A DNA stretch of 64,000 nt, from IMG/VR virus record IMGVR_UViG_3300031420_000490; one strand, given 5' to 3'. The first letter of the stretch is position 1; the number at the start of each line of letters is the position of its first letter. Positions 1-64,000 of the stretch are shown piece after piece. The position numbers and the translations under genes are program-made. The stretch is from a virus. The notes under the pieces are model-generated. The model was not told where the DNA came from. It did no database searches and saw only the letters and a program-made list of their open reading frames with translations.

Positions 1-2
1 AA

Positions 3-188
3 CCTCGTAAGATCGGTGACCGCGCCGCAGAGTCCTTCGGCAACGCCTGGGGCACCATCATCGGTGTCTTCCCCCTCACGGGCGCCTTCGGCGACACCTA
101 CTACGAGTACGAGATCGAGTGGGATGACGGGGACTACGCAGGAGAGCGCTACACCGAGGACGAGCTCATGCCCATCCCCGTGGACTGA
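3..188 (+). CDS. 5'-truncated hypothetical protein (small beta/SH3-like)
   Basis: Open frame from the window edge, PRKIGDRAAESF...ELMPIPVD*, with typical codon usage; absent from the ORF track. Confidence 0.65.
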   Translation, partial: PRKIGDRAAESFGNAWGTIIGVFPLTGAFGDTYYEYEIEWDDGDYAGERYTEDELMPIPVD

Positions 189-280
189 GCGAACTCGAGC
201 TTCAGCGGCCCGCAGGAATCCTCTAGGGAAGGTTCCTGCGGGCCATTGTGCTGTGGAGATCGATGGTGTACGATTCTTCC

Positions 281-616
281 ATGACCACCGCATCCAAGAA
301 GCTCACCAACACCCTGAAGTTCGGCGAGATCGTTCAGCACGACGGCTACACCACGCAGGAAGCCGGCACCGTGGAGATCGCCGGTACGAGCTACCAGGTT
401 CGCATCCAGAACATTGAGCCCAAGGGCGACTTCGCCGGTGCACTCGAGACCTGGCTCGTGGGCCCCCGAGGCGCTGAGTATCTCCTGGAGCCGGTGTCGC
501 TCTTCGAGAACTCGGGTAAGTTCCACATCCAGTCCATCAAGTCGGGCGCCTACCTCCGCAAGGCCGGCAACCCGGTCAAGGTCTTCATGTTCGGCAACCT
601 CATCGAGGAGATCTAA
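281..616 (+). CDS. hypothetical protein, leaderless
   Basis: TTGTGC-17-TACGAT promoter ends 6 nt before ATG 281. Confidence 0.75.
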   Translation: MTTASKKLTNTLKFGEIVQHDGYTTQEAGTVEIAGTSYQVRIQNIEPKGDFAGALETWLVGPRGAEYLLEPVSLFENSGKFHIQSIKSGAYLRKAGNPVKVFMFGNLIEEI

Positions 617-620
617 GCAG

Positions 621-1604
621 ATGGTGGCAGCTTCAGCCTACAGCGAGGCCCGGTTCCAGAGAGCCTCCGAGGCCCTGGACAAGCTCGGGCTCTCCCCGGA
701 GTACCTGGAGCTCCTCGAAGCCAATCCTTCCAGGGATCTGCCCTACCACGGCAACGAGCACCAGCTCGCGGTGGCCAACCTCGCCTACCGGATGGGCTAC
801 ACGCTCCAGCTCGGTGAGAAGGAACGGCGAGCTCTCTTCCTCGCCGGACTCTTCCATGACCAGGGCTACGATCTCGAAGAGGAGGATTCGGCCAACATCG
901 GGCAGGCCATCGCCCTAGTGAGTACCATGATCGACGAGCTCAATCCCGAGCTCCTCGACCAGGTGGCTGAGCTCATCGTGGAGACGGAGGTTCCTCGCTC
1001 TCAACCCCAGAGCCTGGCAGCTTCCATCCTTCAGGATGCCGACCTCCTCATGGTGACGCAGCCCGACGCCGATGAGTTCCTCCAGGGTCTCGTGGAGGAA
1101 CGACCGGGCACCGTCGCTGACCCCACCTTCCCGGGTGAGAGTGCGCTCCACAACGAGATCTCCCGGCGGCTCTACAGGACGGCCATGGAACTGCGAGAGT
1201 CCGGCCGGAAGGTCGAAGACCCTCTCCTGGCGGTGTCGGTGGGCAATACTCACCACCAGCAGGCGCTCTCCTCCAAGGGCTTCCTCGTGGATGCCGACAT
1301 CCTGGAGATCCTGGAACTCCTCTGGGCCCACGGCTACGAGACCGCCTACTCCTGCGCTGGTGACCCGCCCGGTGAGATCGCCCTGGGCTTCGATGAGCCG
1401 ATCCGAAGCTACATCGCCTTCGTGAACACCACGGAGGAGCAGGAAGAGCTCCTTCTGAGCCTGGCCTTCGCCATGGGCAGTGGCCTGGAGCACTTCGATG
1501 GCTCCGAGGGCTCCCTGAAGGGCACAGTGCTGCGCTTCTACCACTGGCGGCTCGCTGATCTTCTGAAGATCCTTCGCTACCGGCTCGAGGGCATCGAGTT
1601 CTGA
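621..1604 (+). CDS. HD-domain hydrolase with C-terminal TYW3-like domain
   Basis: PYHGNEH...GLFHDQG...QDADL HD motifs; C-terminal VDADI...GYETAYSCAG. Confidence 0.7.
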   Translation: MVAASAYSEARFQRASEALDKLGLSPEYLELLEANPSRDLPYHGNEHQLAVANLAYRMGYTLQLGEKERRALFLAGLFHDQGYDLEEEDSANIGQAIALVSTMIDELNPELLDQVAELIVETEVPRSQPQSLAASILQDADLLMVTQPDADEFLQGLVEERPGTVADPTFPGESALHNEISRRLYRTAMELRESGRKVEDPLLAVSVGNTHHQQALSSKGFLVDADILEILELLWAHGYETAYSCAGDPPGEIALGFDEPIRSYIAFVNTTEEQEELLLSLAFAMGSGLEHFDGSEGSLKGTVLRFYHWRLADLLKILRYRLEGIEF

Positions 1605-1658
1605 GTCTCCTCTAGCTGAGGGTTGCGCGAGCCTAGAGCACCGCGTAGGGTGAATCCC

Positions 1659-1943
1659 ATGGAACAGACCCCGAAGAACGCCTACCTCATCACCAAGACC
1701 GACGCCGGCCACGGTGGCGGCCCCGTGGAGACCATCGGCCTCTACCTCTGCAGCTACGAGCAGGCTCAGGAAGTGGCCGACGAGGATCGTCGCAGCGAGG
1801 AGGCGGACCGGCGAGTTCGCTTCGAGCGAGACAAGGGCCGCGGTCTCTCCATGGACTTCGAGGAGTACATGGAGATGTACCGGATGCGCTACCGCATCGA
1901 GCGGCTCCAGCTCCAGGACCTCGGTAGCCGGGACGAGGACTGA
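1659..1943 (+). CDS. hypothetical protein, leaderless
   Basis: TTGCGC-17-TAGGGT, then 7 nt, then ATG. Confidence 0.7.
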   Translation: MEQTPKNAYLITKTDAGHGGGPVETIGLYLCSYEQAQEVADEDRRSEEADRRVRFERDKGRGLSMDFEEYMEMYRMRYRIERLQLQDLGSRDED

Positions 1944-2083
1944 TCGCTTTCTACCTCTCCGTTAACAGCCTCTGGCCTCGAAGCTCTTCGGAACTTTGGG
2001 CCAGAGCTCGTTGAGCCAGCAGGCTGAGGAAAAGTTTGGACAGACTGTTGCGGTGCTGAGATCGAGGGTGTACCATGGAACTC

Positions 2084-2476
2084 ATGAACGCCACCGCGAA
2101 CACCACCGCAACCGCCGAGACCCTCACCGCTGCCAACGGCACGGTAGTCCCCCGCCCCGAAGTTGGGCAGGGCGCCACCCTCCACTACCCGCAGGACACC
2201 TACGGCTTCGTCGTCACCAAGGTCTCCGACTCCGGCAAGACCGTGACCCTGGCCGAGCTCACCAGCCCGAGCCTCGCAACCGGCCACACGGTGGATCGCC
2301 ACGACGGCCCCTTCCCGATCTGGGACCACACCTACACCGAGGGCGAGCTCAAGTCCATGGTCGACCCCCAGGGCAAGACCACCACGATCCGCCTCAACAA
2401 GAACGGTCGCTGGATGAGCAAGGGCACGCCCTTCACCGTCGGCAAGGCTCGCTACTACCGCAACTACTCCTACTGA
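2084..2476 (+). CDS. hypothetical protein, leaderless (MNATANTT start)
   Basis: TTGCGG-17-TACCAT, 7 nt, ATG; UUCG hairpin follows. Confidence 0.8.
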   Translation: MNATANTTATAETLTAANGTVVPRPEVGQGATLHYPQDTYGFVVTKVSDSGKTVTLAELTSPSLATGHTVDRHDGPFPIWDHTYTEGELKSMVDPQGKTTTIRLNKNGRWMSKGTPFTVGKARYYRNYSY

Positions 2477-2488
2477 TCCATCCCCTCG

Positions 2489-2517
2489 GGGAGGGTCGCC
2501 TTCGGGTGGCTCTCTCC
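2489..2517 (+). terminator. UUCG stem-loop terminator
   Basis: GC stem with TTCG loop and pyrimidine tail after the stop codon. Confidence 0.6.
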
Positions 2518-2575
2518 TCCCTCTCTTTCCCGCAGCTTCCTTCAGCTTCATCATAGACCACTAGGAGATCCTCCA

Positions 2576-2869
2576 ATGCCTCTCAATCGCTCAAAGAACG
2601 ACGGTGGCCTCTACGGCACCACGCCCGCAATCGTGGCCAAGGAGAAGAACGGCCGCGTCGAGTTCCTCATCGGCTCTGTCTCACCCTTCGGCCCCGTGCT
2701 CTTCCAGGAGTTCGAGGGCAAGCGCTTCGTCGAGGTCTACATCGAGGACCTCGAGGCCAAGGGCTACACGGTCACCGTGCCCGAGGCACTGGAAGAGGCT
2801 CGCCGGCTCAGCCGGGAGCGCAGCGCTCAGAGCAAGCCGCAGCCCACGAAGAACTTCCGGGTCAAGTAG
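2576..2869 (+). CDS. hypothetical protein
   Basis: AGGAG RBS; typical codon usage. Confidence 0.7.
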   Translation: MPLNRSKNDGGLYGTTPAIVAKEKNGRVEFLIGSVSPFGPVLFQEFEGKRFVEVYIEDLEAKGYTVTVPEALEEARRLSRERSAQSKPQPTKNFRVK

Positions 2870-2889
2870 TAGAAAGTAGAAAGGCAACC

Positions 2890-3135
2890 ATGACACAGCA
2901 GATCCCCGGCAGAGCAGAGGCCATCGCCTTTGCCCGGAAGGCCGGCGAGGAGATCGGCAAGATCCTCGAGGATGGTAGGGCCCATCGGATCAACGATGTG
3001 CTCAAGGAGGCAGCCCAGCACTGCCACACCATCGCCGATGACCTGGCCTCACCCCTGAGCACCATGATCGCCAAGGGCAGGGTAGTGGCTGACATGGTCA
3101 GGGGCACCGTTCGCAAGCCCGGCTCGAAGGACTGA
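2890..3135 (+). CDS. hypothetical protein
   Basis: RBS; operon spacing. Confidence 0.65.
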   Translation: MTQQIPGRAEAIAFARKAGEEIGKILEDGRAHRINDVLKEAAQHCHTIADDLASPLSTMIAKGRVVADMVRGTVRKPGSKD

Positions 3136-3141
3136 TCGCAG

Positions 3142-3543
3142 ATGACCAAGACTGTTCGACGGATCGCCGCAGGTATCGCGGTGGCTCTGGGTGCTGCGGT
3201 GGCGCTCACAGGCTGCATGGCGAAGGTCCCCGCGGACGAGCTCCCGAGCTACACGATCTACCAGAAGAAGGTCGGCGCTTTCGAACAACGCGCCTTCGGC
3301 TACATTGACTCCTCCGGCAAGCGTGAAGATCTCAAGTGTGGCAAGCCTGGACCGTTCACTCGATGGCACTGTGAATCCAAGGACGGCGTGCTGAAGTTCG
3401 ACTACACGGTCCACAAGTCGAGCACCTACCTCAGGGATGTGACCGTGGACGGGGCTGCTCGTAAGATGGAGCGAGTGGACTCACCCCAGGAGGGTGTCCG
3501 CAAGACCTGGGTGCCTAAGGACAGCCTTTCGGCCGATCAGTAG
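3142..3543 (+). CDS. lipoprotein (paralogue of 55285)
   Basis: Signal peptide with ALTG-C lipobox; C..SKDG..F.Y.V.K motif shared with 55285. Confidence 0.7.
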   Translation: MTKTVRRIAAGIAVALGAAVALTGCMAKVPADELPSYTIYQKKVGAFEQRAFGYIDSSGKREDLKCGKPGPFTRWHCESKDGVLKFDYTVHKSSTYLRDVTVDGAARKMERVDSPQEGVRKTWVPKDSLSADQ

Positions 3544-3576
3544 GTCGTAGATCGCGTTCTAAGGCGCTTTCTTGGT

Positions 3577-3610
3577 GCAACTATAGTTGCTAACTGCACA
3601 CTATAATTGC
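3577..3610. promoter_or_regulatory. tandem palindromic operator
   Basis: Perfect GCAACTATAGTTGC palindrome plus a second ACTATAATTGC copy 20 bp downstream containing TATAAT. Confidence 0.55.
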
Positions 3611-3698
3611 ACAGTCAGGCTGTCGCTGAGCGGCGCTCTTGGTAGCGTGGGCTGCACGAGGGCTCACAGGTTGAACCCCAGGGAATGGAGAACTGACC

Positions 3699-3983
3699 AT
3701 GGCACGCAGAGAACCCGAGCAGTTCAAGTTCCAGGATGAGGACTTCCTCGTTCCCCTCTGGCTCGTCCAGGAGGTCCTGGAAGAGGCGAACTTCGGCTCT
3801 GACTTCGGTGAGACCACCACGGCTGACGAGCGGCTCAAGGAAGCTCTGGGTGCCATCGAAGCCCGGGCAGATCGCTACATTGAGATCAGCCGAGAGAGCC
3901 GAAGAGACCGCACGAGGCGGCTCGCGGACCAGCTTCGCTGGACAGCTCAGCGTAACATCGAGCGACTCCAGCGAGACAAGTAG
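3699..3983 (+). CDS. hypothetical helical protein
   Basis: GGAGA RBS. Confidence 0.7.
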   Translation: MARREPEQFKFQDEDFLVPLWLVQEVLEEANFGSDFGETTTADERLKEALGAIEARADRYIEISRESRRDRTRRLADQLRWTAQRNIERLQRDK

Positions 3984-4050
3984 GACTGACCTCAGACTGT
4001 TTCCAAACTGGGGGTTGTGCACTTCGTCGAGCGCGGATTACAATGATTCC

Positions 4051-4485
4051 ATGAACGCCACCGCGAACACCACCGCCACCGCCTTCCCCCGTCCGCTCTT
4101 CACGCCGACCACCGCCGACCTCAAGCTCGTCCCCGCCGGCTCCCTCGTCACGGAGCTCTTCTACGGCGACCGGCTCGCTGTCAAGATCATCGGTCGCCAC
4201 AACGAGATCGAGAGCTCCCCCACGAGCTTCACCGCTGGCTCCGTCGCCGGCTACGCCGCCTCCTACAACGAGGACCCGGAGGCGAAGGTCGCCTGGGCAC
4301 GCAGCCTCGGCCACAACATCCACTACCTCAACGCGGAGGTGACGATGATCGCTCTCCACCCGGAGAAGCAGCCGGAGCGCAAGGTCATCGAGCTCGGCTC
4401 CCTGGTGACCTTCGATGGCCACCTCTACCAGGTCCTCCAGGCACCGAACCGCAACCTCACCCTCGTCCCGGTCATCAACGGCTGA
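4051..4485 (+). CDS. hypothetical protein, leaderless (MNATANTT start)
   Basis: TTGTGC-18-TACAAT, 6 nt, ATG; first 26 nt identical to the gene at 2084. Confidence 0.8.
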   Translation: MNATANTTATAFPRPLFTPTTADLKLVPAGSLVTELFYGDRLAVKIIGRHNEIESSPTSFTAGSVAGYAASYNEDPEAKVAWARSLGHNIHYLNAEVTMIALHPEKQPERKVIELGSLVTFDGHLYQVLQAPNRNLTLVPVING

Positions 4486-4630
4486 TCGGAACACCCCAGC
4501 CGCCCGGCTCGCTCCCAGGAGGAGTAGCCGGGCGACTTCCTTTGGCCTGGGCCTTCGATAAGTTGACACTGAGCATCCTCAGAGCTGCTCCCTAACCGGC
4601 AGGTCAGCCGGCCGACTGAAGGAGCCTCCC

Positions 4631-5584
4631 ATGGCAGAAGACAGCATCGATCTAGAGCGCGTCCGCGTTCGCTACGACCGCCGGGATGGGGCCTTCAGGC
4701 TCACCTCCGCAGATCCTCGGCTCAAGGGTCGGTCCTTCCGGCTCACGCTCTCCAGGGGCAGCGATGCCGTGGACAGCCTCATGGATGTCTTCGAGGAAGA
4801 GGGTATACTGAGCCCGGAGGATCGCATTCCCACGGTGGTTCAGCTCCGAGAGCTCGGAGGACTCAGCCAGGAAGTCGATGAGTACAGCTTCACTGGCGAG
4901 GAGCGGCCTGTGCAGGACAGCCGGCTGGTCTTCCCCGTGGGTCAGCACATGGGTGGAGCGGCCATGAGCGTGGACCTCGGCTACTCGCCCCACACGCTGG
5001 TCACCGGCGAGGCCGGAACCGGCAAAACTCAGACGCTCCGCATCTTCGCTCGGCAGGCACGGAAGCTTGCTCTCAGCAGCAAGGCCAGCCTCCTCATCGT
5101 GAGCTCCTCCGAGAGCGACGGGAGTAAGTACGCCACCCTGGGGAAGCTCACCGGCATCCTCAGGGCTCGCATTCAGATGCTCCAGTCCACCGGAGCCATG
5201 GATTCCAGGAACTACGAGGCGCGAGTGGGAAGCATGGCCCCTCTCTTCCTCTTCGTGGACGGCCTGGATCGGCTGAAGCTCAGCGACTGGCTTCCCGAGC
5301 TCTTGAGCTTCGGTGAAAAGGTGGGCATCTACCTCTTCGCCACCGTGCGGGCAACTGAGGACATTCCTCGCTTTGCCGACGAGTACACGCTCCTTCACAT
5401 CGGCCGGCGCATCGAGATGGGGCTCCCCAGCGAGGGATCACCCGGGAGCTTCCTCAGCAAGCGACTCTTCGACAGCCTCGGCCGGGGCACCATCAGCACC
5501 AACGGCTTCGCTGCGGAGCTCCTACAGTTCGCAGACATCAGCAGAGATGTGGACGGCAAGGTTCTAGAGAGGATGCTCCCATGA
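4631..5584 (+). CDS. FtsK/HerA-like P-loop ATPase with shared N-terminal domain
   Basis: PHTLVTGEAGTGKT Walker A; LFLFVDG degenerate Walker B; G.KVGI.L. Confidence 0.7.
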   Translation: MAEDSIDLERVRVRYDRRDGAFRLTSADPRLKGRSFRLTLSRGSDAVDSLMDVFEEEGILSPEDRIPTVVQLRELGGLSQEVDEYSFTGEERPVQDSRLVFPVGQHMGGAAMSVDLGYSPHTLVTGEAGTGKTQTLRIFARQARKLALSSKASLLIVSSSESDGSKYATLGKLTGILRARIQMLQSTGAMDSRNYEARVGSMAPLFLFVDGLDRLKLSDWLPELLSFGEKVGIYLFATVRATEDIPRFADEYTLLHIGRRIEMGLPSEGSPGSFLSKRLFDSLGRGTISTNGFAAELLQFADISRDVDGKVLERMLP

Positions 5585-6270
5585 GCGCGATTCACAGCCT
5601 GCCGCGGCCGGAGGAAGATCAGCCCTTCGACTGGTCGGCCTTCCTCTGGAGCAAGCACAACGCTGCGGGAACTCGAGGAGTGGTCTTCACGCCCCATCCT
5701 CAGCTCGTGATCCTTGACCGGAGTCGCATCAGCTTCGTAGTGAGCTCGGGCTTCCTCTTCGTCTTGGTGCTGATGGCGATGGCAGTCACATTCCTCTCGC
5801 TCTTTCGGGATGGGCTAGTAGCCGAAGGGCTGATTTCCTACACGCCGTCTTTGATCGATGGAGGATCTGGCTGGCTATTGGGCTGGAGCTTCGCTCTGGC
5901 GGTTACACTAGCAGGGCTGATCCACGAGACTGGCCACTGGATAGCTTTCAAGCTCACGGGCCGTAGGCTCGTGGCACTCACCCTCGCTGCTCGCATGTCG
6001 GTTACTGCAGATCGTGGACCCTCTAACAGCTACCAGCGGCTCCTGACTTCAGCTGCTGGAGGACTCCTAGAGGCACTCGGGGGAGTCTGTCTGCTCGCAA
6101 CCCAGGGAGGCTTCGGCTGGAACGGAGTGCAGTTCATCGCCGCAGCTGTGATCTTCGACGGGATCGCCAATGTGGTCCTCCCCGTCCGTCGAGGCTCGGA
6201 TGGTTGGAGGGTCTGGAGCTCGATTCTGGCCATCCTCATCGGCCGGGGCGCGAGGAGCCTAGAGCGCTAG
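5581..6270 (+). CDS. M50 (site-2 protease-like) membrane metallopeptidase
   Basis: TM segments, HETGH, AAG and NVVLP...SDG motifs; 4-nt overlap with the upstream gene. Confidence 0.7.
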   Translation: MSAIHSLPRPEEDQPFDWSAFLWSKHNAAGTRGVVFTPHPQLVILDRSRISFVVSSGFLFVLVLMAMAVTFLSLFRDGLVAEGLISYTPSLIDGGSGWLLGWSFALAVTLAGLIHETGHWIAFKLTGRRLVALTLAARMSVTADRGPSNSYQRLLTSAAGGLLEALGGVCLLATQGGFGWNGVQFIAAAVIFDGIANVVLPVRRGSDGWRVWSSILAILIGRGARSLER

Positions 6271-6438
6271 GTGCCCTCCTAAGCCCTCGGAGATGGCTCA
6301 CCGCACATACACTGATCTTCGGGGACTTCCTCACCGCTGAGGGCCGCCGGAGGCGCATCTTCGTGAGTCCGACTCGAGCTCTGGGCACAATAGGCTGCAC
6401 AGCTAGAGTAGATATTCACAGACCGAAGGGAAGGGACC

Positions 6439-6750
6439 ATGACTCAGAAGCCGGAAGCGAACAGCGAGCTCGAGGGCTACCGGAGGATGGCCGGAGAGGT
6501 CTACGAGATCCTTCAGCGGACCCGCCCTCAGCAGGAGCCCCACGAGTACAGCGATGAGTCCAAGCGTCTTGCCGGAAAGCTTGCCCAGACGGTCAAGCGC
6601 AAGCTCGAAAGGGAGGGAAGAACGCTGACCCGGGACCCACAGACCGGACGCTACACCATCGTGGATCTTCCGGCAGCTGTTCCCGGTATTCCAGCAGATC
6701 CTCAGCCCACCCCTCGGCGCTCATTCTGGAGCCGACTCCTCGGTCGATAG
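6439..6750 (+). CDS. hypothetical protein
   Basis: AAGGGA RBS. Confidence 0.65.
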   Translation: MTQKPEANSELEGYRRMAGEVYEILQRTRPQQEPHEYSDESKRLAGKLAQTVKRKLEREGRTLTRDPQTGRYTIVDLPAAVPGIPADPQPTPRRSFWSRLLGR

Positions 6751-27612: not shown

Positions 27613-27888
27613 ATGGAATCGACAGCCATGCTTACGGGTCTCGCAGCGGCCGAAGTACGGGAGCGAAGGCTCGCCGAGGAAGAACGCATCGAGATCGAGC
27701 GCATCACCGATCGAGCCCGGGAAGAGCTTCCCAGTGACGGGGTTCCCATCCCACTGCAGGAGTACCTCTTCGCCGTGAGCCGGTCGGCTCGAGTGGATCT
27801 CCTCGACGCAAAGCGAGCCCTGAGCCGGCTTCGACACTTCGGCGAGGCGGACTACAGGTTCGGTGTGGGAGTCTCTCGCAGGAACTGA
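27613..27888 (+). CDS. hypothetical protein
   Basis: Operon coupling. Confidence 0.6.
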   Translation: MESTAMLTGLAAAEVRERRLAEEERIEIERITDRAREELPSDGVPIPLQEYLFAVSRSARVDLLDAKRALSRLRHFGEADYRFGVGVSRRN

Positions 27889-28116
27889 ATCTCAGCACCA
27901 CCTAGCAGGCCCCAGGCGCGACTCTCAGCGCCCGGGGCCTTTGCCGTGCACATGCTCATGGGTAGGAAGATCCAAGGGCTTAGCCGGGCAGCTAGCGTAG
28001 CCCAACTGACTGACCACAGCCCGTTGACAGGACTGTTCCCGTGGCATAGGATCGAACTTCGAAGCACCATAGAAGTGTCTTCCATCCGATCCTCCTGAAG
28101 GGGAGTACACCACACC

Positions 28117-28300
28117 TTGACATCCCCGCTCAACTAGCGAGCGGTTCTCGACTCAAATCGAAGCTTGAGCTTTGAGTGAGACTCTGCGAGCCTGACTCTT
28201 GGCGCGAGTGCGCCGCCTACGAGGCCTGTAGGCCTTGTAGCTAGTTGTCCCTTCAGTGGACACTGCAAGATCGGCTGGCTTCGCCAGCTCCTCTCGGCTT
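28117..28300 (-). ncRNA. putative TnpB omega-RNA scaffold (5' limit unknown)
   Basis: Established TnpB biology: the scaffold overlaps the tnpB 3' end and ends at the right end. Confidence 0.5.
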
Positions 28301-29451
28301 ACTCGTCCTCCAGGGCCGTTTAGCCTCTCCGAGTGTCCCCCGGCGAGGAGCAGCACATTGAGTGCTGCGTTGTAGTCTCGGTCCAGTCGCGCGCCGCAGT
28401 CGCACTGCCACTCTCTGATGGAGAGCGATTTCGGACCGTCGATTGTGCCACAGACCGCGCAGGCCTGTGAGGTGTAAGCTGGATTGACTCGCTCGACGCG
28501 AGTACCCAACCTCTTAGCCGCCTGTTCCACACAGGCAGCGAGCTGGCCAAGACCAGCGTCCATGAAGCTCTTGCTGAGCTTCGCTCTCACCAGCCCCTTG
28601 AGATTCAACGCCTCAAGGCTCACTGCTTGGTTTTCGCTAGCGAGCCTATAGGCGATCTTTCGAGATTGGTCAAGTCTCTGCGCAGCCACATGGGCATGTT
28701 GTTTTGCGAGCGCAAGTCGAGCTCGCTCTCGATTCTTTGAACCCTTCTGCTTGCGCGAGTGTTCTCGATTCAGCCGCGCGAGCTTTCGTTCTGCTCGACG
28801 GTAATGCTTCGGCGCAGCAACCTTATAGCGTGAACCGTCCTCTTTGACGACTGCAGCGAGATCAGTAAGCCCCAAGTCGATACCGGCTACTGGTCCTTCG
28901 AGCTTCGGCTCAGACAGCTGTTGTTGTACGGTGAAGCTCACAGTGTACTCGCCAGAAGGTGACAGCTTGAGTGTGACTCCAGTTGGTTCGCTGGGCAGCT
29001 CTCGCGTGAGCCGAAACTTCAGCCACGAACCCTGCTTAGGAATGCGTACTGCAGCCCACTTCCTGTTGAGCCGTTTCAACTTCAGACTACCGACACCATT
29101 CCAGGTGATGGAGCCGCCACTTCGCTTCCTCTTGAAGTGAGGTTTACCAGGCCGATTCCTACGCTGGCCAGCTAGACCCTTGAAGAATTCGTTGTAGGCA
29201 CTTTCAGCCTGTCGTCGAGCCTGTTCGGCTATTTTCTGTGGATACTTACGCATCCAAGCATAGTTAGATGGAAGCATGCCGTACCGGTCGAGTGGAACTA
29301 CCTTGGGCTGCTCTTTCCGATACACTCGTTCTTTCTGCCAGAGGTAGTCGTTGTAGACAGCGCGGGCTGCACCAAAGGCTCCAGCAAGCCATTCTTGCTG
29401 CACAAAAGTTGGTTGCGCGCAATAGCTGTACTTAACCGTTTGAGTATACAT
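28153..29451 (-). CDS. tnpB: RNA-guided endonuclease TnpB
   Basis: N-terminal HTH; GIDLG, LEALN and DRDYNAA RuvC residues; CxxC/CxC zinc finger. Confidence 0.93.
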   Translation of the reverse strand: MYTQTVKYSYCAQPTFVQQEWLAGAFGAARAVYNDYLWQKERVYRKEQPKVVPLDRYGMLPSNYAWMRKYPQKIAEQARRQAESAYNEFFKGLAGQRRNRPGKPHFKRKRSGGSITWNGVGSLKLKRLNRKWAAVRIPKQGSWLKFRLTRELPSEPTGVTLKLSPSGEYTVSFTVQQQLSEPKLEGPVAGIDLGLTDLAAVVKEDGSRYKVAAPKHYRRAERKLARLNREHSRKQKGSKNRERARLALAKQHAHVAAQRLDQSRKIAYRLASENQAVSLEALNLKGLVRAKLSKSFMDAGLGQLAACVEQAAKRLGTRVERVNPAYTSQACAVCGTIDGPKSLSIREWQCDCGARLDRDYNAALNVLLLAGGHSERLNGPGGRVSREELAKPADLAVSTEGTTSYKAYRPRRRRTRAKSQARRVSLKAQASI

Positions 29452-29545
29452 CGCTTCCCAACTGACTCCATTTCACAATACCAAACCGACACCTTTAGCT
29501 AAGACTCCATTGACAAGTCATGTTCGATCAGTGTAAGATCCGTCC

Positions 29546-52918: not shown

Positions 52919-53003
52919 AGGCCGCGAAAGGGACTCCTTAGATATGGGACTGTGATACTCAAGGGTGAGACCACAGTTCCGTAGCACAGCAAGGAGGCCG
53001 ACG

Positions 53004-54110
53004 ATGGCCACAGACAGCACCAGCGATCCCGTGAAGGATGCCTCAGAGCGCGAGCTCGACGAGCTCCGGGGTGAGACGCTCCAGGGTAGGCTCAACAGCC
53101 TCGCCAACGCAACCCTAGAGAGCGGAGGCGCGGATCTCCTTCCGCCAGCGCTCATCGGCACGGATCAGCTCCCCCGGCCCGTGCGAAAGGCGGTGGTCCC
53201 AGCGGCCGGCCTCGGCACTCGCTTCCTACCGGCCACCAAGTCCATGCCCAAGGAGATGCTGCCAGTTGTGGACAAGCCCGCGATCCACTATGTGGTGGAG
53301 GAGGCTGCCAAGGCTGGGCTCGACGATGTGCTCATCATCACGGGCCGCAACAAGAACTCCATCAACGACCACTTCGACAGCGTGCCCGAGCTCGAGGCAA
53401 CCCTGGAGGCCAAGGGTGACACCACGAAGCTCTCCAAGGTCCAGGAGCCCACGGAGCTCGCTCGGATCCACACGCTGCGCCAGGGCCGGCCCCTGGGCCT
53501 AGGTCACGCCGTGTCCACGGCTGAGCTCCACACGGGCGACGAGCCCTTCGCTGTGCTCCTCGGAGACGACCTCATCGACGGCCGGGATGCGCTCCTCACT
53601 GAGATGGTGCGAGTTCACGGGGAGACAGGCGGCACCGTGGTTGCGCTCATGGAGGTACCCGAGGACTCGATCCACCTCTACGGGTGCGCTGCGGTGGAGC
53701 ACTGTGGCTACACCACTGCCTCGGACGCCGAGGTCGTCCGCATCACGGACCTCGTGGAGAAGCCTGCGGCTGCTGACGCACCCTCCAACCTTGCGGTCAT
53801 CGGCCGCTATGTGCTCACGCCCGGCATCTACCCGGTGCTCAGGAACACCGCTCCAGGCAAGGGCAACGAGATCCAGCTCACGGATGCGCTCCGCACCATC
53901 GCCCAGGGCAACGGAGAGGCTGGAGAGGCGCCCGTCTATGGCGTGATCTTCCGGGGTCGGCGCTACGACACTGGAGATCGGGCGGACTGGATCAAGGCCA
54001 ATGTGCTCCTGGGAGTCGATCACCCTGAGATCGGGGCTGAGCTCCGAGAGTGGATCCTGAGCTACGCCACTCTCCTTCAGACCGAGGACGACTGCGAAGC
54101 GCTCGAGTAG
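53004..54110 (+). CDS. galU: UTP--glucose-1-phosphate uridylyltransferase with N-terminal extension
   Basis: KAVVPAAGLGTRFLPATK..PKEMLPVVDKP, Q..PLGLGHAV, LGDD, VEKP, EIQLTDA, RYDTG; AAGGAGG RBS. Confidence 0.93.
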   Translation: MATDSTSDPVKDASERELDELRGETLQGRLNSLANATLESGGADLLPPALIGTDQLPRPVRKAVVPAAGLGTRFLPATKSMPKEMLPVVDKPAIHYVVEEAAKAGLDDVLIITGRNKNSINDHFDSVPELEATLEAKGDTTKLSKVQEPTELARIHTLRQGRPLGLGHAVSTAELHTGDEPFAVLLGDDLIDGRDALLTEMVRVHGETGGTVVALMEVPEDSIHLYGCAAVEHCGYTTASDAEVVRITDLVEKPAAADAPSNLAVIGRYVLTPGIYPVLRNTAPGKGNEIQLTDALRTIAQGNGEAGEAPVYGVIFRGRRYDTGDRADWIKANVLLGVDHPEIGAELREWILSYATLLQTEDDCEALE

Positions 54111-57312: not shown

Positions 57313-57398
57313 CCCCACCGTGAGTGTCGCCGAGCCTAGAGCCGCGACAGGTCCGTGATAGTAGGCCGAGAGCGAGGCAGCTACAGAGGGGAAACACC

Positions 57399-57821
57399 GT
57401 GAGTCTCACCAAGATCGTGGCAATCACCGTGGGAGTGCTTGTGCTCCTGGGCTTGGGCTTCTCTATGGTGATGGCATCCCAGGGAAAGCCCACCATCTGG
57501 GGGCTCATCGGCGCCCCGAAGATCGCCAATACCGACAAGCTCATGGGTGCCGCCGATGAGGCCAACTACCCCTGGAAGGTCTACACCAACGACAAGACCC
57601 TGGGGCTCCTTCCCTGCGGTGACCTGACCCCAGACCAGCCCGGGGATGAGGAGCTCGGCGAGTGGTGTTCCTCCAAGGGCGAGGCCAAGCTCACTCGCAC
57701 CAACGACTCCAGCGTGCTCAATTTCAACGGCACCGCCTTCCACTACAGCTGCAAGCCCGGGAGCTCCCTGCCCGGTGCGCTCATGGAGTGCAGTCTCGAT
57801 CCCTGGGGTAGCCTCTTCTAA
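57399..57821 (+). CDS. membrane-anchored secreted protein with four Cys
   Basis: N-terminal TM helix; AGAGGGG RBS, GTG start. Confidence 0.7.
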   Translation: MSLTKIVAITVGVLVLLGLGFSMVMASQGKPTIWGLIGAPKIANTDKLMGAADEANYPWKVYTNDKTLGLLPCGDLTPDQPGDEELGEWCSSKGEAKLTRTNDSSVLNFNGTAFHYSCKPGSSLPGALMECSLDPWGSLF

Positions 57822-57896
57822 GCCATCCGAGAACTGAGAGCAGCGAGTTTCGAGGATCGGTTGCGCTGAGTAGCAAGCCCGTGTAGGTTCTCTTCC

Positions 57897-58403
57897 ATGA
57901 CCACCACCTCCGATGTCTGGCCGCCCGCTCATCTTCCCGCTGAGCTCCAGGCCATCGCCACCGCCGCTGACATCATCCGCCAGGAGACCGATCTCCAGTG
58001 GAACGGTGGAGCCGGCGTCTGCCTCGGCGTGAGCGCCTACCTGAGCTACCTCCTCGAGGACCTGGCCATCGACCACAGGCTCGCCAACGGGATCTACACG
58101 GACGAAGAGGGTGAGCACCCCCACTGGTGGATCGAGACGAGCTCCGGCTGGATCCTCGATGCATCTCGCGGCCAGTTCGACCACGGTGATGAGTACCGCT
58201 CCGGGATCGTGGGCCGCTTCGACCGGGCCTACAGCCTGCGGGCGTCCTGGGAGCCGGGTCACACCACCATGGAGCTCGTCGAGGCTGAGATCCTGCGCTG
58301 CTTCGGCGATGCAGGTGAGGCCTACGACTACCTCGACCTCTGCGAGGACACCTGGGCCCAGGTCGAGGACATGGTCCGCCGGGGCATCGTTTCCGTCGGC
58401 TAA
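57897..58403 (+). CDS. transglutaminase/papain-like fold protein, leaderless
   Basis: Candidate triad in GVCLGVS, PHWW and ILDAS; TTGCGC-17-TAGGTT. Confidence 0.55.
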   Translation: MTTTSDVWPPAHLPAELQAIATAADIIRQETDLQWNGGAGVCLGVSAYLSYLLEDLAIDHRLANGIYTDEEGEHPHWWIETSSGWILDASRGQFDHGDEYRSGIVGRFDRAYSLRASWEPGHTTMELVEAEILRCFGDAGEAYDYLDLCEDTWAQVEDMVRRGIVSVG

Positions 58404-58467
58404 GGAAAATCAGAACTCCAAGGCCGAAGCTGTTGACAGCCTGCGGTGTCCATGTAGGATGGGAACC

Positions 58468-58860
58468 ATGAACGCCATCATCACTGCCCCGGTCCTCGAC
58501 TTCTCCGAGCTCAAGCTCGAGGCGAAGCTCGTCTCCCGGGACTTCTCGGGGCTCAAGGGCTTCAACATCCACGACTTCCACCAGGAGACGAACCTCCGCA
58601 CGGTGACCGGCTGGGAGCTCACGCTCCAGGACGAGAGCATCGAGGAGGATGGCTCGGACATGTTCCTGCGCTTCGCCCTGACGGTGGAGTTCACCCGCGG
58701 TTCGGCCGGCATCTGGGACACCAGCGCGGTGCTCTGGATCAGCCAGAGCGAGGGTTTCGTGGAGCTCGGGGAGATCCCCGGCGACGAGGGCATGGCCTAT
58801 CGGATGGATCCCAAGGACTTCGAGTCGCTCTTCCGCAAGCTCAACATCAGTCAACACTGA
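58468..58860 (+). CDS. hypothetical protein, leaderless
   Basis: TTGACA-16-TAGGAT, 7 nt, ATG. Confidence 0.75.
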   Translation: MNAIITAPVLDFSELKLEAKLVSRDFSGLKGFNIHDFHQETNLRTVTGWELTLQDESIEEDGSDMFLRFALTVEFTRGSAGIWDTSAVLWISQSEGFVELGEIPGDEGMAYRMDPKDFESLFRKLNISQH

Positions 58861-58874
58861 AAGGCAGTAGAACC

Positions 58875-59234
58875 ATGGATCCCACCACCATCGCTCGCGC
58901 TCGAGCTCGAGTTGCGCTGGCTGAGCTCACCGGCACCACCGATCTGCCGGAGCGCGTTCGCAAGCTCGCCAGCTCTCCCCACACGCCCGCTCCAGATGCT
59001 CTCAAGATCGTGGAAGGTGTCCTCGCTGAGCCTGAGAACTCGCTCCACGGCTATCTCGCCGACGCCTTCACGGTGCTCGCCGAGGAGCTCACCGAGGCTC
59101 GCCGCAACCAGACCCGGATCATGGAGCTCATCGCTGACTCGGGCAACTGGGACAACCCCACCGATGCTCTGGAGCACATCGGAGACACCATCAACTCGGA
59201 GCAGTACCCCGTCTGGGAGCGCTACGAGGGCTGA
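58875..59234 (+). CDS. hypothetical protein
   Basis: Operon position. Confidence 0.7.
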   Translation: MDPTTIARARARVALAELTGTTDLPERVRKLASSPHTPAPDALKIVEGVLAEPENSLHGYLADAFTVLAEELTEARRNQTRIMELIADSGNWDNPTDALEHIGDTINSEQYPVWERYEG

Positions 59235-59283
59235 TAGCAGCCTGTAGACAGCCCTTCCCTCATTTCCCTAAGGAGAACTCACC

Positions 59284-59646
59284 ATGAAGGACTTCGATCT
59301 TGAGAAGATCCTCAAGGACCCGTCGAAGATCGAGCTCGATCCCACGAGCCCGCTGACCTGGGCGCTCGGCGCGGCAGCACTCCTCGCGCTGATCCTTCTC
59401 GCCACCATCCTCTTCTTCCTGATCCGAGCCATCAGGAGAAGCCTCGAGGCCCGGGGCCAGCGAAAGGCCGCAGAGCGCGCCGGAGCCCGCAGCCTCGCCC
59501 GTCGCAGCGAGCTTCCCGTCGAGGGCGAATCAACAGCTGTTCGCACTCCCCTGGCCGATCCCGACGAGCCCAAGACCTGGCCCCTGGAGCCCTTCGGAGC
59601 TCCTTCAGTGGAGGATGCCGGCGATGGAGAGCTTGCTCGAGCGTAG
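59284..59646 (+). CDS. single-pass membrane protein
   Basis: AAGGAG RBS; TM helix then basic/disordered tail. Confidence 0.7.
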   Translation: MKDFDLEKILKDPSKIELDPTSPLTWALGAAALLALILLATILFFLIRAIRRSLEARGQRKAAERAGARSLARRSELPVEGESTAVRTPLADPDEPKTWPLEPFGAPSVEDAGDGELARA

Positions 59647-59694
59647 CTGCGTCGTTAGAGCAGATGTTCCACTCGAGGGAGAGGTAGGAAGACC

Positions 59695-59862
59695 ATGGAG
59701 CCCTGGGAGATAGTCAATCTCGTCGTTCTGCTGATCATCGTCGGAGCTGTGATACTGTGGTGGTGCAGGGAAGCTGCAGCACGCAGGGTCCAGGAGGCCC
59801 ACGGTGCAGGTTCTTCGGCAGAGTCCGGTGGACTTTCGGCGGGGCGACACGCCGACGAGTAG
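59695..59862 (+). CDS. 55-aa single-pass membrane protein
   Basis: AGGAAG RBS; MEPWEIVNLVVLLIIVG...; not in the ORF track. Confidence 0.6.
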   Translation: MEPWEIVNLVVLLIIVGAVILWWCREAAARRVQEAHGAGSSAESGGLSAGRHADE

Positions 59863-59930
59863 CCGAAATCATCCGAAGGACAGCCAAATCGATAGGTTTC
59901 CCGACGAAACCACTGTCTTAAGGAGACACC

Positions 59931-60176
59931 TTGGAACCCTCTCAGATCATCATCGTAGCCATCTGCGCCATCGTCGCAGTGGGTGGAATCATCATCCTCA
60001 TCAAGAGGAACTACAAGCCCAAGAACAAGGGCGTGGCCGCTCCTCGCAGGGCAGCTACTCCCGTGGCCGGTCCTCGCAACCCGGCAGCAGGCAGTGGTAC
60101 CGGACCCGCCCGTCGGAGCTACGGCGCCGGCAGCACCGACACCCAGCCCACCCGTCGCCAGCGCGGCGACAGCTGA
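59931..60176 (+). CDS. single-pass membrane protein
   Basis: AAGGAG RBS, TTG start; TM helix and basic tail. Confidence 0.7.
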   Translation: MEPSQIIIVAICAIVAVGGIIILIKRNYKPKNKGVAAPRRAATPVAGPRNPAAGSGTGPARRSYGAGSTDTQPTRRQRGDS

Positions 60177-60332
60177 GAGCTCCGGAGGCTGACATCCTCA
60201 GCCCCGGGCTCCACCGTGTCCCACGGATACTCACAGATTCCCCAAGGAGCTGTGAGCAGGGCAGCTAGGGACTATCCGACCCGGTCTATCCCCATCTTGT
60301 CGCATAGATGAGGACAGGCCTCCGGTAACACA

Positions 60333-60367
60333 GGGCGGCGGCGAACCTTCTGGTTCGCCGCCGCTTT
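60333..60367. terminator. terminator of the converging minus-strand genes
   Basis: GCGGCGGCGAACC/GGTTCGCCGCCGC. Confidence 0.65.
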
Positions 60368-60389
60368 GCTGTGTCCTGGGAATCGGGGA

Positions 60390-60701
60390 TTAGATGGTAC
60401 CCACGCGCTCGCCGCCCATGAGGCCGGAGCCCCGGAAGACCACAGCATGGAAGTCCTCCACATCCGGACCCTGCACATCCTCGTCCGAGGGGAGCTCGAT
60501 GCGGCCCACGATCATGGAGGAGTCGCTCGAAGCGTCGCCGCGGAGGAAGTAGACGGCCTTGGTGCCGAAGACCTTCACCGTAGCGCCCACCACGCCCGGA
60601 CCGAACTCGGTCACATTGCTGTAGCTGATGGGCCCCTCGGCGAAGCGCTTGAGGTCGGCCAGGGTGTTGGACGACTTGAAGGGCGCGAGGATGTCGCTCA
60701 T
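60390..60701 (-). CDS. hypothetical protein (paralogue of 60834)
   Basis: L.DL...AEG.I...Y.LRG......GRIELP; GGAG RBS. Confidence 0.75.
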   Translation of the reverse strand: MSDILAPFKSSNTLADLKRFAEGPISYSNVTEFGPGVVGATVKVFGTKAVYFLRGDASSDSSMIVGRIELPSDEDVQGPDVEDFHAVVFRGSGLMGGERVGTI

Positions 60702-60833
60702 GGGAGTGCTCCGAGTGGTGTTCGATGTGGTGTAGTTCAATCATACACCATGAGCTGACCTCAGCGCACTTTCTTCCACGGCGAAAAGGCCACGGACCCA
60801 CTGTCCGCAGCCTGATCGCAGTTTCCTAGGAGC

Positions 60834-61154
60834 TTAGCCGATGATCTCCAGCATCTTGGCGTCCATGGACTCGCTCACGGCGCCGAGGAAGTAGCCACCC
60901 TTGAGTCCGCTACCCCGGTAGCCCAGCGCCGGGCCCTCGTCGCCTCGGGTGAGCAGGGGGAGTTCGATGCGGCCGATGACCTCGGAGTCCTCGTTGGCCT
61001 GCTCACCGCGGAGGAGGTAGATCGTGGTGATCCCGAGGAACTTCATGGTCACCGAGAAGATGCCCTCGGGGAGCCGGGGCTCGTCGCCGAAGAAGATGTC
61101 ACCCTCGGCGTGCTTGTGGAGGTCGCTGAGACTGAGGTCATTGAGCTTGTTCAT
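60834..61154 (-). CDS. hypothetical protein (paralogue of 60390), leaderless
   Basis: - strand TTGCGG-17-TAGGTT, 6 nt, ATG. Confidence 0.8.
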   Translation of the reverse strand: MNKLNDLSLSDLHKHAEGDIFFGDEPRLPEGIFSVTMKFLGITTIYLLRGEQANEDSEVIGRIELPLLTRGDEGPALGYRGSGLKGGYFLGAVSESMDAKMLEIIG

Positions 61155-61246
61155 GGTTCGAACCTACACTGCGTTTGTAGAAACCGCAACCGTGCAATGT
61201 TAGGATTGATCTAGACCACTGAGAACAGAAGAGGATTTCGTTACAG

Positions 61247-61699
61247 ATGACCGAAGAGCTTTCCCGAGTTGAGCAGCGTAGGAAGCGCAAGCGCAAGCTG
61301 TTCTGGGGCCGTATTCAAGCCGTACTCATCATCCTGTTGGTCATCGTCCTTCCCACGGTTTTCTTCGGCATTCTCCCCTGGGTCAGTGGGATCTATGACA
61401 GGAGCCACCATCACACCATCGAGTGCGAGGTAGAGAAGGTATACTGGGAGTCCACATCTACTCGTTCAGCTAAGGGAATCGGCGCATCGGGTCGACAGAT
61501 CGTCTTCGATACTAAGGACTGCCGGGGTCACATCCTTCTCACCGAAGGAGTCTACTCGGACAATGTGAAAGAGCTCGCCAAGTCCCTGAAGCCCGGTCGC
61601 TATCGATTCACCGTGGGTGATGCTGAGTGGGCGATTGCTCCCTACTACAAGATTCTCAAGGTTGCGCCCACAGCTCAGAAGTACAAGTACCTAGGATAG
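61247..61699 (+). CDS. membrane-anchored protein (tandem paralogue of 61704)
   Basis: RRKRKRKLFWG, TM helix, I.C.V...YWE...SGKGIGAS.RQIVFDT.DC. Confidence 0.8.
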   Translation: MTEELSRVEQRRKRKRKLFWGRIQAVLIILLVIVLPTVFFGILPWVSGIYDRSHHHTIECEVEKVYWESTSTRSAKGIGASGRQIVFDTKDCRGHILLTEGVYSDNVKELAKSLKPGRYRFTVGDAEWAIAPYYKILKVAPTAQKYKYLG

Positions 61700-61703
61700 G
61701 CAG

Positions 61704-62174
61704 ATGGTGGAAGAGCTCTCCCGAAGCGAGCAGCGCAGGAAACGCAAGCGTAAGCTGTTCTGGGGCCGCGTTCAGGCGATCCTCGTTCTTTCGGCTGTGA
61801 TCCTATTACCGCTGATGGTCTTCGTAGTCGGTCCTCTTGGGATGGAGTCCTACGACAGCAATCACCAGCTCACGATCAAGTGCCATGTGAAAGATATCTA
61901 CTGGGAGCGTACCTCCACCCACTCCGGGAAGGGGATCGGAGCTTCCAGCCGACAGATCGTCTTCGACACCACCGATTGCAACGGCCACCTTCTCCTTCAG
62001 GATGGAGTCTACTGGGACAATGTGGAAGAGCTCACCGACTCGCTGAAGACAGATCGGAACTATGAGTTCCGAGTCGGAAGGATCGAGTGGAAGCTCGCGG
62101 GTACCCCGATCTACACCTGGACGAAGCTTTCCCCCGAGGCGAAGAGCTATAGGTTCCTCCCGAGCACCGATTAG
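61704..62174 (+). CDS. membrane-anchored protein (tandem paralogue of 61247)
   Basis: Same shared motifs as 61247. Confidence 0.8.
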   Translation: MVEELSRSEQRRKRKRKLFWGRVQAILVLSAVILLPLMVFVVGPLGMESYDSNHQLTIKCHVKDIYWERTSTHSGKGIGASSRQIVFDTTDCNGHLLLQDGVYWDNVEELTDSLKTDRNYEFRVGRIEWKLAGTPIYTWTKLSPEAKSYRFLPSTD

Positions 62175-62259
62175 GAGATCTCTAGCTTTATCACTGGCTG
62201 CGACACGCCGAAGCGACAGCACGGTTGCGCAGAGCTGAGCGGTTGTGATAGAGTGTTCT

Positions 62260-62321
62260 TGCAGGCACCTTGAGGTGGCTACTTTTATATGGAAAATGCA
62301 CGCCGTCTCGCCTTTCCTGCA
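62260..62321 (+). ncRNA. stand-alone structured small RNA, copy 1
   Basis: TTGCGC-18-TAGAGT promoter directly upstream; outer and inner stems; terminator downstream. Confidence 0.7.
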
Positions 62322-62328
62322 CCTGAAC

Positions 62329-62369
62329 GCCCCGGACTCACGAGTATCGAGTCCGGGGCTTCTCCTTTT
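62329..62369 (+). terminator. intrinsic terminator after RNA copy 1
   Basis: GCCCCGGACTC/GAGTCCGGGGC followed by TTCTCCTTTT. Confidence 0.75.
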
Positions 62370-62422
62370 GTGCGATCAGCTAAGGCTGAGGTAGTTCGCC
62401 AGCTCCGTAGGGACAGTAGTTC

Positions 62423-62499
62423 ATCAACCCAGGAGGGTTGATTCCACCGAAATCAACCCAGGATGGTTGATAGTGCGAGATCAACGCTCTAGCATTGAT
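62423..62499. repeat. three 20-bp palindromic boxes ATCAAC-N8-RTTGAT
   Basis: Starts at 62423, 62452 and 62480. Confidence 0.8.
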
Positions 62500-62559
62500 T
62501 CCGCCCAAGATGGCGCTGCCCGTTGACAGCTGCCAGCACCCTGTGATAGGATCGATGCT

Positions 62560-62620
62560 GTCAGGCTCCTTGAGGTGGCTACTCACTATTACTGAATCCC
62601 GCCGTCTCGCCTTTCCTGAC
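62560..62620 (+). ncRNA. structured RNA copy 2, in the 5' UTR of ORF 62650
   Basis: TTGACA-18-TAGGAT promoter; same inner stem and internal loop as copy 1, compensatory outer stem. Confidence 0.7.
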
Positions 62621-62649
62621 CTTAGCTTTTCACCCGAAGGAAACACCAC

Positions 62650-64000
62650 ATGGCTACCATCACAGCCACCCTCCGTCAGGCCGCCCTCCGCCGCGGCATC
62701 CTCATCGAGAACCTCACGGGGACCAGCCCCGCCAGCGATGCTGTGCGCTACGCTGCTGTGCTCGAGCTCGCCAACCTGGGTTTCCTCGTGCAGCCCGACG
62801 ATCTCAAGGGCTTCTCCACCAAGGCACTCACTTCCACCATCGAGGGTGCCCGCAAGGTCATCGGCGCTGATCGGAACATGAAGCCGATCTACCCGGGCTT
62901 CCCGAAGCAGGTCGAGGAGCTCTCCACGCTGCAGCTCCTCATGGAGCAGATCCTCCATTACTGGACCGCCGGTCGCTTCCTTCCCAGCCACCCGGACGAG
63001 GTCCGCGAGGGCCTTCCCCTGGAGGACATGCTGCGCAGTGCTCGACAGCTGCGACTCCTGTCGGCAGATGTGGCCCTGGAGGAGCTCCTCAGTGAGCTCG
63101 TCAAGGCTCCTGTCGCGCTCTCCTCGGACGACCGGGAGCTCCTCGCAGAGCTCACCAAGGTGGTCTACGGTGAGGGCTTCCACCGGACCCTCAGCACCGC
63201 CGACCTCGTGCGCAGCTCCACCAACGGCGAGAACATCCAGGTCTTCGGCGAGGCGCTCCGAGACCATGCCTCCAAGGCTGTGCACAGCAAGGATGACTAC
63301 TTCACCGCGGTGAGCTTCGGTATCCGCAACAGCGACCACCTCCTGCGAGTGATCCTGTCCTTCTACGGCGCTCCGGCAGCCGACCGCTGGGTTGAGAACT
63401 ACAAGCTCGCCGTGGGCACCCTGGCCGACCGGCACTTCCGGGCAGTGCGCTTCTCGAGCGTTCCTCGCCACCAGCGCCAGCGCATCGTGGACGCCCTGGG
63501 TAAGCTCACCGAGGGCTACCAGGCCGACCGGCTCGTGGCCCGTCAGAACCTCTGGCGTCGAGTCTTCAAGGGTCTCCACCCCTACGACCTGAAGCTTTCG
63601 GTAGAGTCGAAGCGCGCCCTGGACATCGTCCACAGCAACATCGACTACCGGACCCTGAACTCGGTCATCGAGGAGGCCCTGGAGAGCCGCAGGATCTCTG
63701 AGGCCGTGGAGCTCCTCGCAGAGCACCAGCCGGGCAACCTCCTCCGGCGTCTCGTGGCCATCCTCCGGCTCACGAAGAAGAAGGCGGACGCCAAGGTCCT
63801 CGCGAAGCGCGTGGCTGAGGTCGGTTCGAGGGCTACGCTCTCCACGCTGATCTCTTCCTACAACGGTGTCCTCGGCGCCAACGACGAGCACGCTCGCGTG
63901 AACCGGGTTGCCGAGCTCAACAACACCATGCTGGATCGGGGCGAGGTCGAGAAGATCGACGCGAACTTCCAGGCTGAGATCCTCGGAGCTCTGGATGAGG
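62650..64000 (+). CDS. large alpha-helical protein, 3'-truncated; resembles the MXAN_6230/SCO0854-like (TerD-associated) family without the RING insert
   Basis: Open frame to the window end, AAGGA RBS; LRRG, ELANLGF, PIYPGFPKQV, ILHYW, W.R...LHPY and G.LLRRL motifs. Family call is from memory. Confidence 0.7.
   Translation, partial: MATITATLRQAALRRGILIENLTGTSPASDAVRYAAVLELANLGFLVQPDDLKGFSTKALTSTIEGARKVIGADRNMKPIYPGFPKQVEELSTLQLLMEQILHYWTAGRFLPSHPDEVREGLPLEDMLRSARQLRLLSADVALEELLSELVKAPVALSSDDRELLAELTKVVYGEGFHRTLSTADLVRSSTNGENIQVFGEALRDHASKAVHSKDDYFTAVSFGIRNSDHLLRVILSFYGAPAADRWVENYKLAVGTLADRHFRAVRFSSVPRHQRQRIVDALGKLTEGYQADRLVARQNLWRRVFKGLHPYDLKLSVESKRALDIVHSNIDYRTLNSVIEEALESRRISEAVELLAEHQPGNLLRRLVAILRLTKKKADAKVLAKRVAEVGSRATLSTLISSYNGVLGANDEHARVNRVAELNNTMLDRGEVEKIDANFQAEILGALDE

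Follow-up and report, generated by a model that had tools for sequence, protein, structure and literature searches.

The tetranucleotide ACGT occurs on neither strand of the 64,000-bp window analysed here, the whole stretch of the IMG/VR virus record IMGVR_UViG_3300031420_000490, itself part of an element that spans 346 kb or more. The evidence gives good support to strong, continuing selection against this word at the level of the DNA. We infer that a host restriction enzyme exerts this selection; of the explanations considered, the right one is probably that the element avoids the sites of an orthodox Type II enzyme, specific for ACGT, carried by the host population. Incoming DNA with even one unmethylated ACGT would then be a target for an ACGT-specific Type II endonuclease common in the host population. 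The lineage of the element has lost every ACGT and keeps removing new ones. Coding sites are removed synonymously (NAC to NAT before valine, ACG to ACC, ACA or ACT before a T, CGT to other arginine codons after an A) and non-coding sites by point changes, leaving the proteins unaffected.

An earlier note on this DNA, made from the letters alone, had held that ACGT appears to be missing from the whole window where about 200 copies should be found at a GC content of about 65%. An exact search confirmed the absence:

Positions 1 to 64000, no strand: ACGT-free stretch, the whole window, lying within a contiguous ACGT-free sequence of at least 101,357 bp.

The expectation for the window is 99 copies in a maximal-order Markov model and 222 in a zero-order model, while dinucleotide-preserving shuffles (n = 100) gave 125.4 copies with a standard deviation (sd) of 11.8. 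Shuffling synonymous codons within each gene (n = 300) preserves every protein and the codon usage of each gene, and draws on a codon pool that is itself already depleted; it still predicted 60.8 copies (sd 5.5, minimum 47). Even at this last expectation the Poisson probability of finding none is about 4e-27. ACGT, a 4-bp palindrome, is the sole word with a zero count among the 256 tetranucleotides. The next lowest observed/expected (O/E) ratios in the window lie at 0.45–0.5, and the remaining palindromes containing CpG are normal (TCGA 1.11, CCGG 1.12, GCGC 1.28, CGCG 0.68). The expectation of about 200 copies agrees with the zero-order value and with the density of 3.14 per kb in the Mycobacterium phage WXIN; the GC estimate was slightly high, the measured value being 61.7%. 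The plus strand of the window is skewed in composition (C 20,552 versus G 18,912; A 13,179 versus T 11,357), a bias that accompanies the near-uniform orientation of the genes.

The way in which the word is avoided can be read from the codons. We used a rough gene map of long open reading frames (ORFs) with a high GC content at third codon positions (GC3), in which 104 ORFs cover 81% of the window and lie nearly all on the plus strand. ACGT is purged from these genes in all three codon frames. None of the 222 ACG codons is followed by a T, and threonine preceding a codon that starts with T is encoded by ACC (74 cases), ACA (16) or ACT (15). The combination NAC|GTN never occurs, compared with 51 instances of NAT|GTN, despite an overall NAC:NAT ratio of 1797:535. 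In the third frame, all 76 CGT codons are preceded by a base other than A. The replacement of NAC by NAT before valine had been pointed out in the earlier note, with galU as an example, and the pairs are indeed present in this gene:

Positions 52965 to 54110, plus strand: gene for a GalU-like UTP-glucose-1-phosphate uridylyltransferase (NCBIfam galU, 3.9e-95).

It contains NAT|GTG switches at positions 53289, 53325, 53808 and 54000 (TAT GTG twice, GAT GTG and AAT GTG), and the AAT of the AAT GTG pair is the only AAT codon in the gene. The 11,250 bp outside assigned genes are likewise devoid of ACGT, where 13 (Markov) to 42 (zero-order) copies were expected. Since the word is missing from all frames and from non-coding sequence alike, the constraint bears on the DNA word itself, not on codon pairs in translation. 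A synonymous alternative to ACGT exists in every frame, and the purge thus comes at no cost to the proteins.

The absence continues beyond the window. Overlapping contigs from ENA, JGI and Logan assemblies of phyllosphere metagenomes, matched by exact proteins, extend it downstream (L009, L011 and L123) to a contiguous stretch of 101,357 bp with 0 ACGT versus 154 expected under the Markov model; the density of a phage of equal GC would give about 318 copies in the same length. Exact proteins of the window were also found on contigs of 297,614 and 346,375 bp, and the inspected portion of about 101 kb amounts to about 30% of the element, taken at its minimum size of 346 kb. Four ORFs within the first 5.6 kb of the window returned no exact-protein match, though one of them (positions 4631–5584) appears among the genes called on an identical contig; this is probably a gap in the index.

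Relatives of the element were found with a conserved protein as marker:

Positions 62650 to 64000, plus strand: 5′ part of the gene for the 714-aa conserved marker protein, also present at positions 940–3084 of L009.

The marker family has more than 221 homologs, on hundreds of metagenomic contigs, and includes proteins of phage WXIN (43% identity) and of the Rhodococcus phage Weasels2 (26%). Among NCBI genomes a homolog turned up only as a 3.7-kb fragment binned in a Lysobacter metagenome-assembled genome (MAG), which is uninformative. Contigs whose marker is 86–93% identical to that of the window have an ACGT count of zero:

L004, 15.8 kb: 0 ACGT observed, 25.5 expected.
L106 / L112, 22 kb: 0 observed, 34 expected.
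L110 and L116, 13.6 kb non-redundant: 0 observed, 18.6 and 16.6 expected.
L109 and L111, 3.8 and 4.7 kb: 0 observed, 7.5 and 8.7 expected.

A deeper lineage (lineage C), with a marker only 61–63% identical, is ACGT-free as well:

L114, 22,139 bp on a contig of 673,773 bp: 0 ACGT observed, 29 expected.
L115 and L113, 7.2 kb and 4.8 kb: 0 ACGT.

At least three related lineages, with about 70 kb of sequence between them, contain no ACGT, and with the element itself the total examined comes to 0 ACGT in about 170 kb. Further out, relatives with a marker 54–57% identical and a GC of 0.37–0.56 do contain the word, at an O/E of 0.58–0.86. In non-overlapping alignments with 66–82% nucleotide identity, 3,103 substitutions set L106 apart from the window lineage. 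Placed at random with the same spectrum, these would have created 28.6 new ACGT sites (sd 5.3, minimum 15), and none is observed. As 3,103 substitutions created no ACGT and deep lineages are purged too, the purge is old, common to the clade and still maintained by purifying selection.

These observations also bear on whether a mutational or compositional bias, such as deamination of 5-methylcytosine or a host-like oligonucleotide bias, might have emptied the sequence of ACGT without selection on individual sites. The deamination products of the word are mildly over-represented, as this explanation would have it (ATGT O/E 1.13, ACAT 1.10). However, other one-step neighbours are enriched to the same extent or more (CCGT 1.37, ACGG 1.26, TCGT 1.24; full range 0.86–1.37), and the replacements track whatever is synonymous in each frame. 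Moreover, an exact zero in about 170 kb would be impossible given back-mutation, and candidate host chromosomes show no such bias. We therefore consider a bias of this kind very unlikely. Composition as such does not empty a phage genome of ACGT either: WXIN, with a GC of 0.62 like that of the window, has 314 ACGT per 100 kb (O/E 1.1), and Weasels2 has an O/E of 0.88. A sub-pattern of the word occurs near the level of its control word in both of these phages and in the Curtobacterium phage Yappy and the Microbacterium phage Vitas, the latter two showing weak protein similarity to the window.

Nothing was found in favour of an artefact arising in sequencing, assembly or library preparation. The same sequence was obtained from several samples and pipelines, and independent assemblies (ENA k141 contigs, JGI and Logan) are identical base for base over the compared sequence. 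Within a single metagenome, Ga0308157, one contig (L114) is ACGT-free while another (L119) has the word; together with the agreement between assemblies this excludes an artefact of library or assembly. In addition, reading frames are intact and the avoidance is achieved by synonymous codons. We give this explanation practically no credence.

The earlier note had held that the depletion should count as a trait of the element unless the host chromosome were equally depleted. The closest cellular homologs of the GalU-like protein, at 61–66% identity, come from Microbacteriaceae (Cryobacterium, Parafrigoribacterium, Labedella, Glaciihabitans, Microbacterium and Herbiconiux) and from Arthrobacter. 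This similarity, the phyllosphere source and the weak matches to Curtobacterium and Microbacterium phages suggest that the host probably belongs to the Micrococcales and lives on leaf surfaces. We counted SSACGTSS and a reversed control in 401 genomes of the Microbacteriaceae and 401 of the order. The ACGT pattern was present in every one of about 790 distinct genomes, with 62 to 18,613 matches, while the 92-kb stretch formed by the window with L009 and L011 has 0 versus 36 for the control. Chromosomal samples of 20 kb from Micrococcales genomes among the GalU-homolog loci gave an ACGT O/E of 0.8–1.3. Small, lower-GC Microbacteriaceae with an ACGT/TGCA ratio of 0.12–0.2 were taken up as candidate ACGT-poor hosts and rejected, this ratio being an effect of composition (proper O/E 0.75–1.4). 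No ACGT-poor chromosome was thus found among the candidate genomes of the family and order or in the 20-kb samples, the host itself being putative. On this evidence the absence of ACGT appears to be a trait of the clade of the element and not one of composition or of the likely host group; the equal depletion that the earlier note had named as the sign of a host trait was seen in none of the likely-host chromosomes sampled. Two side observations came from the chromosomal sequences: an apparent purge in an unrelated gut Firmicute, with 1 ACGT in 14 kb versus 21 expected (L093, JBGUUL010000047.1, Ruminococcus sp. MAG), and a possible purge of GTAC in a small Microbacteriaceae genome of GC 0.48 (L131 from G135; 2 GTAC in 20 kb, O/E 0.11).

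What might exert such selection on the element? The earlier note had proposed an ACGT-targeting restriction or modification system, of the host or of the element itself. The selection part of this proposal stands, being strong, ongoing and exerted on the DNA, as seen in all frames, in non-coding sequence and across the 3,103 substitutions. As for the enzyme, among the 148 ORFs of the 92 kb, searches with Pfam, PADLOC and NCBIfam found no DNA methyltransferase or restriction endonuclease and no member of the PD-(D/E)xK, HNH or GIY-YIG families. Neither were methyltransferase or restriction genes found in the gene tables of L106 and L123 or among ten ORFs of L114 scanned against Pfam. Profile searches often miss restriction enzymes, and here they covered the smaller part of the element; these negative results therefore only lower the probability that the enzyme is encoded by the element.

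A self-encoded enzyme would in fact account for some of the data rather well. The element might produce an ACGT-specific endonuclease without a cognate methyltransferase, shredding the DNA of the host or of competitors while being immune itself since it is free of sites. A complete purge inherited across deeply diverged lineages fits a factor carried by the element better than patchy host restriction-modification (R-M) systems, candidate host chromosomes hold thousands of ACGT targets, and an enzyme that escapes profiles could lie among the ORFs, about 87%, that belong to no recognisable family. Against this stands the lack of any restriction endonuclease-like family among the 148 ORFs, in an element of which about 30% has been seen. 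The known phage-encoded nucleases that shred host DNA depend on modified bases or methylation, and we know of no precedent for protection through site absence alone. We thus regard a self-encoded nuclease as unlikely. The fullest version of the idea, in which a giant (346–674 kb) actinobacterial phage-like clade keeps its whole genome ACGT-free through its own methylase-less ACGT nuclease and tells self from non-self purely by site absence, seems to us a long shot. Precedent favours a host-encoded enzyme over one encoded by the element.

Another possibility is that the element avoids methylation rather than cleavage of unmodified sites. Some host strains might possess an ACGT methyltransferase, as an orphan or within an R-M system, and others a methylation-dependent (Type IV) restriction system, in which case site-free DNA would never receive the mark and would be safe in both. 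The absence of sites would be equally protective and all the evidence for selection is compatible with this scheme. Methyl-specific Type IV restriction is reported to be important in Actinobacteria (PMC6769113), and a GmrSD-type Type IV gene adjoins the marker in the distant relative L108. On the other hand, two components of the host population are needed, neither of which has been observed, and where sites are avoided, published surveys point mainly to orthodox Type II systems (PMC6286503). We consider this scheme improbable.

ACGT is not the only palindrome that is under-represented. The following words are scarce in the 92 kb:

CGATCG: 7 observed, 46–84 expected.
CGTACG: 0 observed, 16 expected.
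TCGCGA: 9 observed, 43 expected.
TCATGA: 7 observed, 21–29 expected.
GTCGAC: 10 observed, 25 expected.
GCATGC: 7 observed, 23 expected.

Distant relatives avoid other words, with an O/E of 0.24 for TCGA, 0.28 for GGCC and 0.30 for AGCT in L117 and of 0.33 for GTAC in L119. Such lineage-specific sets are expected, because changing R-M repertoires exert this kind of pressure through several enzymes.

The word ACGT is the specificity of MaeII, HpyCH4IV and TaiI, which come from a methanogen, Helicobacter and Thermus, respectively, while the presumed host of the element belongs to the Micrococcales. Apart from this difference in source, their recognition word is the word avoided by the element. 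No flanking preference is visible, all 16 NACGTN contexts being absent because ACGT itself is absent. Site avoidance in viral genomes mostly concerns orthodox Type II enzymes, and about one viral genome in ten has lost a site completely or nearly so (Rusinov et al. 2018, PMC6286503). One such case is GATC, the site of Sau3A, eliminated from the 140-kb genome of Staphylococcus phage K (PMC6532042). Like phage K and the phages surveyed, our element has lost a 4-bp Type II palindrome from a large double-stranded DNA genome with its proteins unchanged and, as in those cases, with a weaker avoidance of other palindromes. It differs from phage K, for which the word is GATC, the enzyme Sau3A is known and the genome is 140 kb long, in its word, in its size of at least 346 kb and in having a presumed host. 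Furthermore, its purge is common to lineages down to 61% marker identity, including the one on the 674-kb contig. While the phenomenon of avoidance is known, what is unusual here is the word, the scale (elements of 346–674 kb), the completeness and the evolutionary depth.

As to the nature of the element, only about 13 of the 148 ORFs match a Pfam family (HD, RNase H, RNase T-like exonuclease, GalU-like NTP transferase, R2K ATP-grasp, DUF3228, 2H phosphoesterase, M50-like peptidase, FtsK-like ATPase and TnpB) and about 15 match PHROG families. One of the 148 ORFs matches NCBIfam NF041916, the MXAN_6230/SCO0854 family of RING-domain proteins (3.9e-46). No housekeeping gene was found among the 148 ORFs and no tRNA in scans of the window and related loci. 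The contigs of 297,614 and 346,375 bp exceed the limit of 200 kb used for jumbo phages, a comparison of contig sizes only. The small, dense, mostly one-directional genes, mostly ORFans with some PHROG and actinophage homologs, are also jumbo phage-like. In contrast to jumbo phages, the 101 kb yielded none of the virion hallmark genes (major capsid, portal, terminase, tail); only weak Hoc-like Ig and tail-like matches were seen. Three proteins of the window have no relatives in IMG/VR, and the window shows no nucleotide similarity to phage and plasmid collections. On balance we lean towards a jumbo phage; the element might instead be a giant plasmid. Restriction on entry would apply to phage and plasmid alike. 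Contigs of the marker family are generally very large and rich in ORFans, other relatives residing on contigs of 436–830 kb with a GC of 0.37 to 0.63, and none of them is in IMG/VR. The large contigs bearing the marker may represent giant phages, or else giant elements resembling plasmids, that are widespread as a group.

An insertion sequence (IS) interrupts the array of plus-strand genes in the window:

Positions 28153 to 29451, minus strand: TnpB (IS200/IS605-type) gene of an inserted IS, with Pfam OrfB_IS605 and TNB domains.

The IS region (27861–29520) is foreign in composition, with a GC of 0.56 and a GC3 of 0.57 compared with about 0.8 in neighbouring genes. It too lacks ACGT (0 versus 1.6 in the Markov to 6.2 in the zero-order model). 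A TnpB gene, whose product is 28% identical to the TnpB of the window, adjoins the marker in L108. Identification of the host through TnpB was attempted and abandoned, since its relatives are only 29–35% identical, mostly from Actinomycetota and not diagnostic.

Several points weigh against attributing the purge to a Type II enzyme of the host population. The ORFs searched yielded no ACGT-specific enzyme, and the host is putative, proposed from the 61–66% identity of GalU and from weak matches to phage proteins. Literature searches gave nothing specific on avoidance of ACGT in phages or actinophage-like elements, nor on R-M systems or methylation specific for this word in Actinobacteria or Microbacteriaceae. 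Since strains usually differ in the R-M systems that they carry, a 100% purge across such diverged lineages requires an unusually constant pressure. The inspection of about 101 kb out of at least 346 kb leaves room for an enzyme encoded by the element, and with no virion genes seen in these 101 kb the element might be a giant plasmid, though restriction avoidance would still apply.

If the purge does reflect host restriction, the missing 4-bp word predicts an ACGT-specific restriction activity in the host population that has been stable over long evolutionary time. The purge may also help to link such elements to their host: other phages might share it, or a MAG might prove to encode an R-M system of the ACGT type. 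For the recruitment of more contigs of this uncultured clade from phyllosphere metagenomes, zero ACGT at a GC of 60–63% provides a simple signature. Finally, the element shows that a site can be avoided without exception over hundreds of kilobases, which gives a minimum for what a single site must cost.

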